Source of the DNA: a phage | Length of the DNA stretch: 64,000 nucleotides | Sequence record: PZ583743.1 | Reading direction: 5' to 3' (one strand) | Part shown: positions 3,532 through 64,000 of the stretch, piece after piece | How positions within the stretch are numbered: position 1 is the first letter of the stretch | Layout: each line of letters starts with the position of its first letter | Position numbers and translations under genes: made by a program | The notes under the pieces: model-generated | What the model was told of the DNA's origin: nothing | The model's database searches: none | The model's input: only the letters and a program-made list of their open reading frames with translations

Positions 3532-4392
3532 TTACACCGCCATTTTTCCTTTAATAGGAGGGTGAGATACATAGTTGTTAAGAACAAAATTATGCGGCTT
3601 TGCGAATTGACTCAACCAAAATACCTGTGATTCTGTGTCCCATTCATCAAATTCATCTGGAAATTTTAATTGTAATTCGCATAAATCCATAGGTTCACGA
3701 CGCAAAATTTCTTTACATTGTTCTATGTGATTCATATAGATATGAGTATTACCACCAGAAAATATCAAATCTCCTGGAATAAGATTACACATCTTAGCTA
3801 CAATATGAACTAATGCAGCATATGATGCAATGTTGAATGGCAAGCCCAAGAACACGTCAACACTTCTTTGATACCACTGCAAATCCAAATAGCCATTACG
3901 CACATTAAACTGATAGAACATATGACAAGGCGGTAATGCCATTTGCTTGAGTTCAGCTGGATTCCATGCTGAAACAATTTGACGTCTATCATTTGGCAGT
4001 TTTTTAATACGATCAACAACTTCTATAATTTGGTCTACACCGCCAAAATCACGCCATTGTTTTCCATAAATTGGACCAAGTTCACCGCTATGATATCCTA
4101 AATCTTTTGCTTGATTTTCGTAATTTTCATCCCAGACTGTTTTGCCTTGAATTAATGAATCATGCTGAATTAATCGTAAATCATTTACGTTAGTACTTCC
4201 TGATAAAAACCATATTAGCTCAGCAATGCAAGCTTTCCAGGCGAGCTTCTTAGTTGTTACTGCAGGAAAACCTTTACTTAAATCCCAGCGTAATTTAGTA
4301 CCGAACAGAGCAATTGTTCCTGTGCCTGTTCGGTCATCAGTTTCATAGCCATTTTCAAAAATGTCTTTAATTAAATCTTGGTATTGTTTCAT
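3532..4392 (-). CDS. td: Thymidylate synthase, uninterrupted (no group I intron)
   Basis: 286 aa continuous ORF with ThyA motifs (LPPCH, FNIASYA); T4 Td is 286 aa. Confidence 0.95.
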   Translation of the reverse strand: MKQYQDLIKDIFENGYETDDRTGTGTIALFGTKLRWDLSKGFPAVTTKKLAWKACIAELIWFLSGSTNVNDLRLIQHDSLIQGKTVWDENYENQAKDLGYHSGELGPIYGKQWRDFGGVDQIIEVVDRIKKLPNDRRQIVSAWNPAELKQMALPPCHMFYQFNVRNGYLDLQWYQRSVDVFLGLPFNIASYAALVHIVAKMCNLIPGDLIFSGGNTHIYMNHIEQCKEILRREPMDLCELQLKFPDEFDEWDTESQVFWLSQFAKPHNFVLNNYVSHPPIKGKMAV

Positions 4393-43989: not shown

Positions 43990-44186
43990 TTTGAATGCTC
44001 TATAATTAATTTTAAGGCTTCTTCATGCACCTTACCTAATTGTATATGTCCAGTTTTAATTGTGTAAGCTTTGTGGAGCTGATTAGATAGGAGCTCGTAT
44101 GTGAGCTCCTTGTCATAATTTTTAAATAGCTGGTCAATACGTTTCTTGTGGGCTTTCTTAAGTTGACGTTTATTTAAACGAGCCAT
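43986..44186 (-). CDS. Hypothetical basic protein
   Basis: 66-aa ORF coupled to gene 56 stop. Confidence 0.5.
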   Translation of the reverse strand: MARLNKRQLKKAHKKRIDQLFKNYDKELTYELLSNQLHKAYTIKTGHIQLGKVHEEALKLIIEHSK

Positions 44187-44704
44187 TAATAACCTCGGTC
44201 TTGACGAGCGAAGTTTTCAGCATTTTTCAGATAATAAAGTTTAAAGATTTCTTCAGCCGTAAGACCGAGACCTTGGAACATGTTCAGAACGAAATGAAGA
44301 ATATCAATCATTTCGAATTTAATTTCCAACTGGTCTTGTGGAGACAAATCAGTAATCAGAGTTTCACGTCGTTCACCATGTTGAGCTTTCCAAGGCTTCC
44401 ATACAGCAGATGCATCTTTTTCACCATTGCTCATACCACCAAGAGAAGTCAATAGTTCGCGGAATTCATCATCAATATAATCTTTCTGATTACGCAGCCA
44501 ATCAACAACTTCACCCGCAGTAGCCAAATCATCAGGATGACGGTTATATTCAGGTTTATCTTTAGCTAAACGAACCTGTAGAGATTTCTGCATATCAAGC
44601 ATAACCTGCAGCGGGTCTTTTTCATCACCGAGAATATCCCAGTATTCATTTTGAGCTTTATCAGCGCCTTCGATCAGTTGACTACATTCGTTAAAGTAAG
44701 CCAT
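44186..44704 (-). CDS. 56: dCTPase/dUTPase gp56 (MazG-like)
   Basis: ORF track 44186..44719; start at 44704 (MAYFNECSQLIEG...) gives 172 aa vs T4 gp56 171 aa. Confidence 0.8.
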   Translation of the reverse strand: MAYFNECSQLIEGADKAQNEYWDILGDEKDPLQVMLDMQKSLQVRLAKDKPEYNRHPDDLATAGEVVDWLRNQKDYIDDEFRELLTSLGGMSNGEKDASAVWKPWKAQHGERRETLITDLSPQDQLEIKFEMIDILHFVLNMFQGLGLTAEEIFKLYYLKNAENFARQDRGY

Positions 44705-44764: not shown

Positions 44765-46104
<1,340 letters not shown>

Positions 46105-50514: not shown

Positions 50515-50877
50515 TTAAAAGAATTTAAATTTTTTCTTTGACCTTTTATTAAATGCATCTTGTAGTTGCATTGTAATACATTTTTCTACATGAGGAGCTA
50601 ACTCAGCTTTTCTTTCTTGGTCAAGAACAGCAAAGTCCATTACGACTTTTCCATCAACCCAATCTAATTTTGTCACATACACAATGTGTGTAGAACCATC
50701 TTCTAGTTTAATGACAATCTCCTGGATAACATTTTCCATGGCAGATTTAATTATCTTAAGAGATTCATTAAAAAGACGTTCTTTTCTTTCTTCTTCCCCC
50801 TCCGAAGAGGGGGATTCGTCGATAATTTCTAGATCTAAATCTAAATCATCTTTATTCATTAAATTCTTCCATATCAC
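50515..50877 (-). CDS. 40: Probable gp40
   Basis: 120-aa ORF between uvsX and 41; start overlaps uvsX 3' end. Confidence 0.55.
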   Translation of the reverse strand: MIWKNLMNKDDLDLDLEIIDESPSSEGEEERKERLFNESLKIIKSAMENVIQEIVIKLEDGSTHIVYVTKLDWVDGKVVMDFAVLDQERKAELAPHVEKCITMQLQDAFNKRSKKKFKFF

Positions 50878-52033
50878 TTAACTGATCTAGGTCAGTTTCT
50901 AAATCAGCTGCTGATTTACTTTTACTTTCTGGAGATTTAAATTTTTCAACCTTTGAGTTAATCAATTCATCAACTTCAGCTTCAACAATTTCATTACTAT
51001 CAATAGCACCTAATTGATAAGCACGTTTAATAGCATCTCGGAATGGTTGATGCTTAAATAAAGGACCCCAGAATGTAGTGCAGTTGGTATCTTTTGCACG
51101 CCAAGATTTTTCTTCGCGAATCATCTCGCCTGTTTCTTCGTCAAGAAATTCACGAGCATACCAGCCATTTTTAGGTTTTACTACAAATCCTAATTCAAGA
51201 GCCATATCTAACAATCCAGAATAAGGATCGATACCACCGTCAAATTTAACATCAATAAAGAATTTACTTTTTTCTTTAACGGTACGAGATTTTTCTACAT
51301 TTAGAACAAATTGATACCCCTGAAGATCAGAACCATCTTTAATCTGACGCTTACCGATAATGAATACAGTATCAGCTGAATACATTACGCCTGTACCACC
51401 TGTCATCACGGTTTTACTAAACATTTCAATGGTTTCAATTGTATGGTTAACCGCAACACATGGAATATTTTTAATGCTAAAATAAGGAGTAACAATACGG
51501 AATAATGACTTCAGTGATTTAGCACGAGTCATATCTGCCACAGATTTTTCATTCAAGGCATCTTCCGTTTCTTTCTTAGAAGCCATATTACCAATTGAGT
51601 CGATGAATACAATAACCTTTTCACCACGCTCAATAGCTTCAAGCTGATTCACCATATCAATTTTCAGTTGTTCAACTGACTGGATTGGCGTATGAATTAC
51701 TCGTTCTGGGTCAACTCCCATGGATCGCAAATAAGCTGGAGTAATACCAAATTCGCTATCATAGAATAGACAAACTGCATCAGGATATTTGTTCAAATAT
51801 GCCGCAACCATAGTCAAAGACATATTTGATTTAAAGTGTTTAGAAGGCCCTGCGAAAATAGTTAAACCGGACTGCATTCCACCATCAATCGCACCGGAAA
51901 TAGCGATATTAAGCATTGGAATTTTTGTACGGATTACATCCTTTTCATTAAAGAATTTAGATGTAGTCAGTTCAGCAGTCATTTTAGAAGTGGAAGCTTT
52001 AATCAAACGGGATTTTAAATCTGCAATAGACAT
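50852..52033 (-). CDS. uvsX: Recombinase UvsX (RecA-like)
   Basis: 393 aa; Walker A GPSKHFKS; near-identical to T4 UvsX. Confidence 0.95.
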   Translation of the reverse strand: MSIADLKSRLIKASTSKMTAELTTSKFFNEKDVIRTKIPMLNIAISGAIDGGMQSGLTIFAGPSKHFKSNMSLTMVAAYLNKYPDAVCLFYDSEFGITPAYLRSMGVDPERVIHTPIQSVEQLKIDMVNQLEAIERGEKVIVFIDSIGNMASKKETEDALNEKSVADMTRAKSLKSLFRIVTPYFSIKNIPCVAVNHTIETIEMFSKTVMTGGTGVMYSADTVFIIGKRQIKDGSDLQGYQFVLNVEKSRTVKEKSKFFIDVKFDGGIDPYSGLLDMALELGFVVKPKNGWYAREFLDEETGEMIREEKSWRAKDTNCTTFWGPLFKHQPFRDAIKRAYQLGAIDSNEIVEAEVDELINSKVEKFKSPESKSKSAADLETDLDQLSDMEEFNE

Positions 52034-52110
52034 TCATTTTTTCCATAGGCATCATTATATTTTCCTCACTGGTTAAAGATAGAATAATTATAACACAATA
52101 AATTTAGGCA

Positions 52111-52959
52111 TTAATCAACTGCTATTGGATGAATAGCATTAAACTTATGAAATGCTTCTGATTTTTCTTTACGCGAAACACACATGCGAAGAACCTTTAA
52201 TGGCTCGTCTTCTTCACCCAACGATTTTCGTTTTTCAATATTCGATGTTTTCCAACGAGCTTGCTCTGGAAACTCTCTATTGATTTGCTCAAGCGCTCTA
52301 TTATGTTTAGAATTACTACGAATTGAACTACATCCACCGGGAGCGTGTGATTTTCCAGATACAACTAGATATTTGAACAAGGCCAAATGCGGATAACCTT
52401 GATTAATTAAATTGAGAAATGCATACATATCTTCGCATAAATCAATTTTTCCATACCCAATTTGTTCTGTCGTAAGTTTTCCGAGGTCATACCATGTATT
52501 CGTGAATCCATATGAGTTTTCACGATAATTACCCCAAGATGAAGTAATTTTAAAAATTGGTAGACGAGCATGACCGTGATAATACCCGCAATCCATGGCA
52601 TCTTCAACATATTGAATCAATTCATAGAACTGTTCACGAGTTAATTGATTAATTTTATCTACACGCCGTTTATCGTCTCTCTTTCGTATTGAACTCATAC
52701 GAATAGTAGTATCATCATCAATCATCCAGATTCGTTGACCTGCATACATATCAGTAATTGCTTTACGAGTACCAGCAATTCCATTAACATCATCAGGAAT
52801 AGTTATAATTTTAGCTCTAGACCCATAAGCGTCATAATAAGCTTTTTCTTCGTGTTTACGTACTACAATATGAGGTTCATAATCAGTTGGAAACATATCA
52901 AGGGCAGAAACTGCCCCTACGCGTTGATAACTTGGAATTACGAATTGAATCATTTCCAC
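52111..52959 (-). CDS. GT-A fold glycosyltransferase at the T4 beta-gt locus
   Basis: 282 aa; FVIPSYQR and IWMIDDDTT (DxD) motifs; between uvsX and 42 where T4 has the 351-aa GT-B beta-gt. Confidence 0.6.
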   Translation of the reverse strand: MEMIQFVIPSYQRVGAVSALDMFPTDYEPHIVVRKHEEKAYYDAYGSRAKIITIPDDVNGIAGTRKAITDMYAGQRIWMIDDDTTIRMSSIRKRDDKRRVDKINQLTREQFYELIQYVEDAMDCGYYHGHARLPIFKITSSWGNYRENSYGFTNTWYDLGKLTTEQIGYGKIDLCEDMYAFLNLINQGYPHLALFKYLVVSGKSHAPGGCSSIRSNSKHNRALEQINREFPEQARWKTSNIEKRKSLGEEDEPLKVLRMCVSRKEKSEAFHKFNAIHPIAVD

Positions 52960-53690
52960 TCACCGTTATAATCTTTTTTCGCAATATGAATTTCGCCAGT
53001 TTTCCACCAATGGTCAACCAAATAAAAATGACGGGAATACACATGAAGGCTCCCGACATTCCATATAATGGAACCTGCTTTATACTGACGAGTTGAATCA
53101 CCTGCATTCAAATCAGATACTAATTTATCTAGTACATATTTTTGCCATGCATAATCATTACGGAATCCGAAGACCACGTCATTTGAACGCATGTTAACCA
53201 CTGCATTAATTTTCTTATCACGAATCAGGTACTGTACTGTATTAGTACACATGAAATCCGACATGCCATCTTTATTGTAGTCAAACTGCATGGATGGACG
53301 AGTATAAATCATGATACCGCGTCGAGAATCAGGATTTTGACCAAGTTCAGCTAAACACATATCATACTGGGCATAGTTATCTTCTGACCAGATGGCCCAA
53401 CCATAATTCGAGTTAATTTCGCCTTTAGAAGATGCTACCTGCTGCCAAATCTTCGGCGTTTCACCTGGAATATCTTTAACAAACAAACTTTGAGACTTAT
53501 ACCATTCAAGTTCACGCTGAATGTATTCATCATTAAGAGCGCCAAAAATAAAAGGTTCATCTGCTACAAATGATGCACCAATAATTTCAATAGTTTTAAC
53601 ACCGGTTTTATCAATTACGAAATCTTTTTCCTTTAATGCAAGACCCAAATCAAGACGGATTTCTTCAACTGTCATATAATCGTTAATCAT
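52950..53690 (-). CDS. 42: dCMP hydroxymethylase gp42
   Basis: 246 aa, same length as T4 gp42; thymidylate-synthase-like fold. Confidence 0.9.
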   Translation of the reverse strand: MINDYMTVEEIRLDLGLALKEKDFVIDKTGVKTIEIIGASFVADEPFIFGALNDEYIQRELEWYKSQSLFVKDIPGETPKIWQQVASSKGEINSNYGWAIWSEDNYAQYDMCLAELGQNPDSRRGIMIYTRPSMQFDYNKDGMSDFMCTNTVQYLIRDKKINAVVNMRSNDVVFGFRNDYAWQKYVLDKLVSDLNAGDSTRQYKAGSIIWNVGSLHVYSRHFYLVDHWWKTGEIHIAKKDYNGEWK

Positions 53691-53697
53691 TTAAACC

Positions 53698-53847
53698 TCA
53701 ATTGATGCATTCATATTTAATTTGTAACAGTAATAAACCCCAACCTAAAATAATAGTTGGAATCATAAGAGGAACCGTTACACTATAGTATATACTTATT
53801 ATAATCATCAAGATTAAAAGCAACACTGCTATAATTTTGCTTTTCAT
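53698..53847 (-). CDS. Tiny membrane protein (49 aa)
   Basis: ATGA overlap with imm stop; MKSKIIAVLLLILMIIISIYY... Confidence 0.4.
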   Translation of the reverse strand: MKSKIIAVLLLILMIIISIYYSVTVPLMIPTIILGWGLLLLQIKYECIN

Positions 53848-62901: not shown

Positions 62902-63917
62902 TGTGTTGCCTCTACATATAACTGATTTGCATATTGAATAAGTGCTTCACGGTCAGAATCAGTGATGTCTGGAATTGCATTAATGTATTCTTCCATCAAC
63001 GTCTGAAGAGATTGAACTTCAACTTCTTCACTATCATCTGACTCGACAGAGTTATCAATCTTTGACACAACTCGTAATGAATGCACAACTTTTTCTAGTT
63101 CAGATTCGAACTTCGTCAGATTTTTGTCTACTTCAGTTACTATAACACGTACTGATAGATTTGTAAAATCTTTATAGTCAATTTTTCCTTTAAATGGATA
63201 ATGAATTCTACGATGCCAGGTAGTATTGTTTGGAATAAATTCCATTCGTTCTGTTTCTGTATCAAACATCCAGAACCCACGAGGGTCATTCTCGTCACCT
63301 GCAGTTAGTGTCCATGGTGTCCCAATATATCTGACGTTTGCAGCCTCAGAAATAGTATGGAAGTGACCAGACCACACTTCTTTATAAGTCTTAAGGAAAT
63401 CAGGTTCAAGACCGTGAGATTTCATTCCTTTATAAAAATAAAATCCATTCAGTTCCCAGTGACCAACACAAAAAGAAGCAGATGAAGTTTTGATATGCTC
63501 AAGAATTTCACCAGTATTTTCTTCACACATCCAAGGAATTAAATCAATCAAACATCCGTCAAAATCTACTGTAGTAGGCTTATCATATACTTTAACATTA
63601 GGATATTTAGCCAAAAGCTCAGTAGAGGCATTTGGATGCATTACATTTTTATAGTGGAGATCGTGATTTCCTACAATAGTGTGTAATGTAATTCCAGCAT
63701 CATCAAGCGTTTGAACTATTTCACGGGCAAACTCCATAGTTTTATGTGTGATCGCTTTTCGCACATCAAAAATATCACCATATTGAATCCAGGTAGTAAT
63801 TCCATTTTTCTTAGAATATTCTATTGCTTGTTTAATTCCATCAATTTGAATACCGCGAATCCACTCATCATCAGCTTTAACGCCTAAATGCCAATCACCT
63901 AAATTTAAAATTTTCAT
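62898..63917 (-). CDS. 47: Recombination endonuclease subunit gp47 (Mre11/SbcD-like)
   Basis: 339 aa, same length as T4 gp47; phosphoesterase motifs LNLGDWHLG and GNHD. Confidence 0.9.
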   Translation of the reverse strand: MKILNLGDWHLGVKADDEWIRGIQIDGIKQAIEYSKKNGITTWIQYGDIFDVRKAITHKTMEFAREIVQTLDDAGITLHTIVGNHDLHYKNVMHPNASTELLAKYPNVKVYDKPTTVDFDGCLIDLIPWMCEENTGEILEHIKTSSASFCVGHWELNGFYFYKGMKSHGLEPDFLKTYKEVWSGHFHTISEAANVRYIGTPWTLTAGDENDPRGFWMFDTETERMEFIPNNTTWHRRIHYPFKGKIDYKDFTNLSVRVIVTEVDKNLTKFESELEKVVHSLRVVSKIDNSVESDDSEEVEVQSLQTLMEEYINAIPDITDSDREALIQYANQLYVEATQ

Positions 63918-64000
63918 ATATCAAGAACCGTCATTGAAATGCAAAATAAAATTATTGAAATAAATCCATCTGGAGTGCTAAAGAACCCAATCCAACATGC
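63914..64000 (-). CDS. C-terminal end of an upstream ORF (partial, product unknown)
   Basis: Open frame ending ...GFISIILFCISMTVLDI with TGA overlapping gene 47 ATG; 5' part outside window. Confidence 0.3.
   Translation of the reverse strand, partial: ACWIGFFSTPDGFISIILFCISMTVLDI

Follow-up and report, generated by a model that had tools for sequence, protein, structure and literature searches.

A gene between uvsX and gene 42 of a phage genome very probably encodes the T2/T6-type enzyme that extends alpha-glucosyl-hydroxymethylcytosine in phage DNA

We analysed a 64,000-nucleotide stretch of phage DNA (sequence record PZ583743.1; hereafter the window) in which a gene on the minus strand, ba-gt, lies between uvsX and the dCMP hydroxymethylase gene 42 (Table 1). 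Alternative names for this gene and its product are ggt, TAGT and glucosyl-DNA beta-glucosyltransferase. A mechanical open reading frame listing begins the gene at an in-frame GTG at 52959 (52111..52959, minus strand), giving the 282-aa protein originally predicted; the reading frame is present, and its start was corrected to the ATG two codons downstream, which overlaps the gene 42 stop codon as ATGA and is the start used in the T2, ZN18, Geo and BGP annotations (all 280 aa). Given this overlap, ba-gt and gene 42 are probably co-transcribed and translationally coupled. A scan for promoter and terminator consensus sequences around ba-gt returned 13 matches (11.3 ± 3.2 in shuffled sequence), which is no higher than shuffled and thus permits no statement on a dedicated ba-gt promoter. 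On the other side, only a 77-bp spacer (52034-52110) separates ba-gt from uvsX, as is also the case in T2, T6 and ZN18. The surrounding 20 kb are approximately 97% identical to Tequatrovirus genomes (for example, Yersinia phage ZN18 and Escherichia phage HP3), and the gene order around ba-gt is the same as in both of these phages.

Table 1. Coordinates of ba-gt, its conserved codons and associated features within the window
Feature	Position	Strand	Basis or remark
ba-gt / ggt / TAGT CDS	52111..52953	-	280 codons plus stop, ATG at 52953
R11 codon, IPSYQR motif	52921..52923	-	99% conserved in 143 relatives
D79-D80-D81 codons (GATGATGAT), DxD motif	52711..52719	-	99/100/96% conserved in 143 relatives
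E174-D175 codons, 'ED' motif	52429..52434	-	E174 78%, D175 100% conserved
gene 42, dCMP hydroxymethylase (hmC precursor)	52950..53690	-	ORF, Pfam Thymidylat_synt E 4.6e-16
uvsX	50852-52033		other neighbour of ba-gt
gene 56, dCTPase/dUTPase	44186..44704	-	ORF, Pfam dUTPase_2 E 1.1e-06
spacer upstream of gene 47	63918..64000	-	window end, 83 bp past gene 47

The window also holds other genes of the hydroxymethylcytosine (hmC) pathway. The T2 and T6 records list the counterpart of gene 42 as gp42, and the position of gene 56, whose product bars unmodified cytosine from phage DNA as part of the same modification pathway, matches gp56 in the T2, T6 and ZN18 records. Searches of the whole window with T4 b-gt and T2 a-gt (tblastn) recovered no alpha-gt or beta-gt homologue and no second DNA glucosyltransferase, with nothing below E 1 for T4 b-gt. 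Over its final 101 bases (63900-64000; the spacer together with the initial 18 bases of gene 47), the window shows 2 differences from ZN18. There, 94 bp separate the point that matches the window end from the alpha-gt stop codon, and alpha-gt directly follows gene 47 in ZN18, T2 and T6. Since about 94 further bases lead to alpha-gt in these relatives, the gene is expected just outside the window, and we infer from this synteny that the genome of this phage carries it.

Two small open reading frames of the window were also observed. The first (53698-53847, minus strand) encodes a very hydrophobic 49-aa product (MKSKIIAVLLLILMIIISIYY...) and takes up most of the approximately 150-bp gap from gene 42 to imm, a gap without annotation in the T2, T6, T4 and ZN18 records; its start overlaps the imm stop codon as ATGA, and it could encode a small membrane protein that annotation has missed, or be a chance open reading frame. 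The second (45544-46104, minus strand; 186 aa) lies immediately downstream of dam (44765-45544), with which it has one boundary base in common, and has weak, sub-threshold Pfam matches to the DpnII (E 0.0045) and BanI restriction endonucleases. [quoted passage not shown] A phage with a GATC-type nuclease remnant adjoining its GATC methylase could merit a look.

The product of ba-gt is very probably the T2/T6-type beta-glucosyl-HMC-alpha-glucosyltransferase that extends alpha-glucosyl-hmC in phage DNA, as the original prediction had proposed from motifs and position. The protein is identical to the T2 ggt product at 271 of 280 residues (97%) and to the intact T6 copy (AP018814) at 269 of 280 (96%); it matched PHROG 842, 'beta-glucosyl-HMC-alpha-glucosyltransferase', at E 1.5e-87. 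Full-length identity to the T2 and T6 enzymes, the slot between uvsX and gene 42, and the presence in the window of the hmC synthesis genes 42 and 56 place the gene in the ba-gt orthologue group, the members of which in T2 and T6 have the same length (280 aa), slot, ATGA overlap and conserved residues. The motifs quoted in the prediction were found as given (FVIPSYQR at residues 4-11, IWMIDDDTT at residues 75-83), and its observation is confirmed, with the small start-codon correction, by the open reading frame, these motifs, the neighbouring genes and the lack of similarity to T4 b-gt. Its assignment to 'GT-A / GT2' held for the fold and not for the family: Glycos_transf_2 (PF00535), the GT2 sequence model, gave no significant match, whereas Pfam PF20691 (TAGT, TET-associated glycosyltransferase) matched at 39.4 bits (gathering cutoff 27.5) over residues 3-207, corresponding to profile positions 2-205 of 205. 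TAGT is itself of the GT-A type and has been described as the sister family of GT2 (PMC13216743). NCBIfam holds no model for the ba-gt protein. Orthology, fold, intact conserved residues and synteny are thus given by the analysis itself.

Consistent with a GT-A fold, the protein has a single Rossmann-like alpha/beta/alpha domain, with the DxD motif ending a central strand, and structural likeness to solved GT-A enzymes. An initial structure model, based on 10 sequences, was mediocre (pLDDT 69), with weak Foldseek matches (E about 1e-3) confined to the N-terminal half, and was superseded by a model based on 124 sequences. The nearest solved structures are TarP/TarS, cellulose synthase and GalNAc-T, which have teichoic acid, polysaccharide or protein acceptors; GT2-family inverting GT-A enzymes listed as related are TarP/TarS, AvpGT, cellulose synthase and SpsA. 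Conservation was scored over 143 distant relatives with a median identity of 23% to the window protein, and, beyond the motifs in Table 1, R63 (93%), G186 (100%), G206/G207 (99/100%) and R212 (99%) were conserved; R11 is also invariant in A1 and A2. All of these residues are present in the window protein. Its R11 corresponds to the 'R', and its E174-D175 to the EDY/F motif, of the R...DDD...ED signature published for phage GT-A DNA glycosyltransferases and the trypanosome base-J glucosyltransferase (bioRxiv 10.1101/2023.12.21.572611). A sequence search of the PDB gave chance matches only (E > 1), indicating that no family member has a solved structure, and residue roles are therefore assigned by analogy: R11 would contact the nucleotide-sugar, D79-D81 would bind a divalent metal and the UDP diphosphate, and D175 would be the catalytic base for inverting transfer.

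In T4, the slot next to gene 42 is occupied by b-gt (351 aa), the product of which resembles that of ba-gt in being UDP-glucose-dependent and in forming a beta linkage on hmC-derived DNA. However, the T4 enzyme has a GT-B rather than a GT-A fold and no sequence similarity to the window protein (best BLASTP E value 3.9 against T4 b-gt, of the GT-B family PF09198), and it converts bare hmC to mono-beta-glucosyl-hmC, its acceptor not being alpha-glucosyl-hmC. The T4 gene order is uvsX, segA, b-gt, 42, and the window lacks the GIY-YIG homing endonuclease gene segA (T4 3571-4236). The synteny of the slot with T4 b-gt has been stated previously (PMC13390438). The prediction had framed the gene as standing where T4 has beta-gt, which is correct for the slot, but the rarity that this implied belongs to T4. 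Matches to the ba-gt DNA came from 480 phage records, and in 475 of these the identity was at least 90%, with named products among the matches given as 'beta-glucosyl-HMC-alpha-glucosyltransferase' or 'glucosyl transferase'; in the same collection, alpha-gt matched 504 records and T4-type b-gt 29, many of the latter being T4 isolates or derivatives. Alpha-GT and beta-GT occur together in 6 of 753 GT-encoding phage genomes (PMC13216743), and a-gt and ba-gt were found in 12 sequenced 'RB' phages (Thomas et al.). Together, these counts make the window an example of the majority arrangement and T4 the outlier.

Labels in some public records depart from these identities. In KM607002 (RB55) and KM607003 (RB59), a b-gt 100% identical to that of T4 carries the label 'beta-glucosyl-HMC-alpha-glucosyl-transferase', which properly belongs to the unrelated GT-A enzyme, and RefSeq records name gene 42 'thymidylate synthase'. 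Both labels are erroneous, and predictions of DNA modification that rely on them could go astray.

The product, linkage and protective effect of the enzyme would be those described in the literature on relatives. In the Durham phage collection, in which DNA nucleosides were determined by HPLC/MS (2026; PMC13390438), the DNA of phages vB_Eco_Geo and vB_Eco_BGP contained 5-hmdC, alpha-glucosyl-hmdC and alpha-gentiobiosyl-hmdC at about 1:2:2, with the disaccharide alpha-linked to the base and no beta-glucosyl-hmdC detected. The TAGT protein of these phages is identical to that of the window at 278 of 280 residues (E33K and V50I, with K33 and I50 in the window and E33 and V50 in Geo and BGP; neither K33 nor I50 is at a family-conserved position), and all three phages have the same genes flanking ba-gt, dam followed by the small restriction-enzyme-like open reading frame, and an I89/K95/R97/I101/S202/H203 haplotype in common. 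With Geo and BGP as proxies, the donor, linkage and modification of the window phage may be regarded as largely settled. Deletion of ba-gt from T6 renders the DNA degradable by Brig1, an alpha-glucosyl-hmC-specific glycosylase, and the phage more sensitive, and T6 without ba-gt has been described as having only alpha-glucosyl-hmC. An arabinosyl-type modification, as in RB69 and Mosigvirus, was also rejected, gene 42 and ba-gt being as in T2/T6; the region's approximately 97% identity to Tequatrovirus genomes also counters it.

How much of the modification is disaccharide varies widely among phages with similar enzymes. Gentiobiosyl-hmC has been put at about 5% in T2 and 72% in T6, a 14-fold difference between phages with nearly identical enzymes; near-identity (approximately 97% for T2) thus does not fix the extent of modification, and any extent of diglucosylation that we infer for the window phage cannot be read from identity alone. 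The window protein differs from that of T2 by 9 substitutions and from that of T6 by about 10, one of the former being at position 11, where T2 has H in two independent records that agree (MH751506 7286-8128; AP018813 4283-5125) and the window has the consensus R, as do 99% of the 143 distant relatives and all other T-even copies examined. R11H is therefore a candidate explanation for the low gentiobiosyl-hmC content of T2 (about 5%) relative to T6, and a statement of this link was not found in the literature examined. The window also lacks the lesions of two T6 records: an amber at codon 10 (CAG to TAG) in MH550421 (7138-7980), which is annotated as 261 aa from M20, and the loss of one GAT from the GATGATGAT run in AP018814 (4135-4974), which turns the invariant DDD into DD. 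Since T6 is the classic high-gentiobiose phage, these lesions are stock-specific mutations or sequencing errors; in the former case, they would suggest that ba-gt is dispensable in the laboratory.

These alleles bear on whether the gene might be weakly active in the window phage, leaving its DNA almost entirely mono-alpha-glucosylated as in T2. Such an outcome would be in keeping with the meagre gentiobiosyl-hmC of T2 despite its 97% identical gene, and with the dispensability in laboratory culture that lesions in both public T6 records suggest, but we consider it improbable: R11H in T2 affects a 99%-conserved residue, whereas the window protein has R11 and the full set of other conserved residues, which makes a T2-like weak enzyme less likely, and the Geo/BGP allele, only two residues away at positions outside the family-conserved set, accompanies gentiobiose on about 40% of cytosines.

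A second alternative is that the enzyme is the first transferase, acting directly on hmC. The protein belongs to Pfam TAGT, and many TET-associated GT-A enzymes work in this way; other such phage enzymes put sugars straight on 5hmC (bioRxiv 10.1101/2023.12.21.572611), and many phages have a TAGT homologue without alpha-GT or beta-GT (PMC13216743). The same study records TAGT homologues alongside alpha-GT or beta-GT and regards the family's acceptor specificity as unsettled. Yet the alpha-linked disaccharide and lack of detected beta-glucosyl-hmdC in Geo and BGP, like the description of T6 without ba-gt, argue against a direct transfer to hmC, which we regard as highly improbable. In classical genetics of the 1960s by Revel, Hattman and Luria, T2 and T6 alpha-gt mutants reportedly have non-glucosylated DNA, which also counts against it. 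The TET/5mYOX-associated GT-A enzymes and the trypanosome JGT have PF20691, the GT-A fold and the R...DDD...ED signature in common with the window protein at approximately 20-30% identity, but they mostly add the first sugar to 5hmC or 5hmU that a dioxygenase generates once the DNA has been replicated, whereas the window enzyme would extend a sugar on hmC that a thymidylate-synthase homologue supplies ahead of replication. A non-DNA acceptor (a cell-envelope polymer or protein) or a sugar other than glucose, which the acceptors of the nearest solved structures could suggest because fold alone does not identify the acceptor, is already effectively refuted by the 96-97% orthology to the T2/T6 enzymes rather than to a non-DNA glycosyltransferase, the placement of the gene within the hmC pathway and its probable translational coupling to gene 42, the gentiobiose measured in DNA of phages with a near-identical protein (PMC13390438) and a T6 deletion phenotype that concerns DNA.

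For the preferred reading, a T2/T6-type enzyme extending alpha-glucosyl-hmC, the following pathway is proposed. Gp42 would make hm-dCMP and gp56 would remove dCTP, such that the polymerase incorporates hmC; an alpha-glucosyltransferase, the gene for which lies immediately beyond the window end in relatives, would put alpha-linked glucose on hmC in duplex DNA; and the ba-gt enzyme, expressed early with gene 42 through the ATGA overlap, would use UDP-glucose to add another glucose at O6 of the first in a beta-1,6 linkage, yielding gentiobiosyl-hmC. In this single-domain GT-A enzyme, by analogy, D79-D81 would hold the divalent metal and the UDP diphosphate, R11, R63 and R212 would contact the nucleotide-sugar, and D175 would act as the base, activating O6 on the acceptor glucose for an inverting displacement from alpha-donor to beta-product. 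The disaccharide may then shield the DNA from enzymes that recognise alpha-glucosyl-hmC (for example, the Brig1 glycosylase).

The finding is correct and already known, in that the gene, the fold, the synteny with T4 b-gt and the product have all been published. The genes were reportedly cloned by Winkler and Rueger, in Nucleic Acids Res 1993. Knowledge of the product goes back to the early 1960s (Kornberg et al. 1961; Kuno and Lehman 1962), and reports of the fold and synteny appeared in 2026. A further idea, which we hold to be rather unlikely but worth stating, is that the ba-gt allele sets the ratio of mono- to di-glucosyl-hmC in T-even phages, with R11H explaining the low content of T2; if true, the window phage would be predictably intermediate, like Geo and BGP (about 1:2:2), and the sugar pattern that decides sensitivity to Brig1-type glycosylases could be readable from ba-gt alone. 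For annotators, the window represents a typical T2/T6-type Tequatrovirus, the DNA of which, by analogy with its relatives, most likely carries alpha-glucosyl- and gentiobiosyl-hydroxymethylcytosine rather than the alpha- and beta-monoglucosyl-hmC that occur together in T4.
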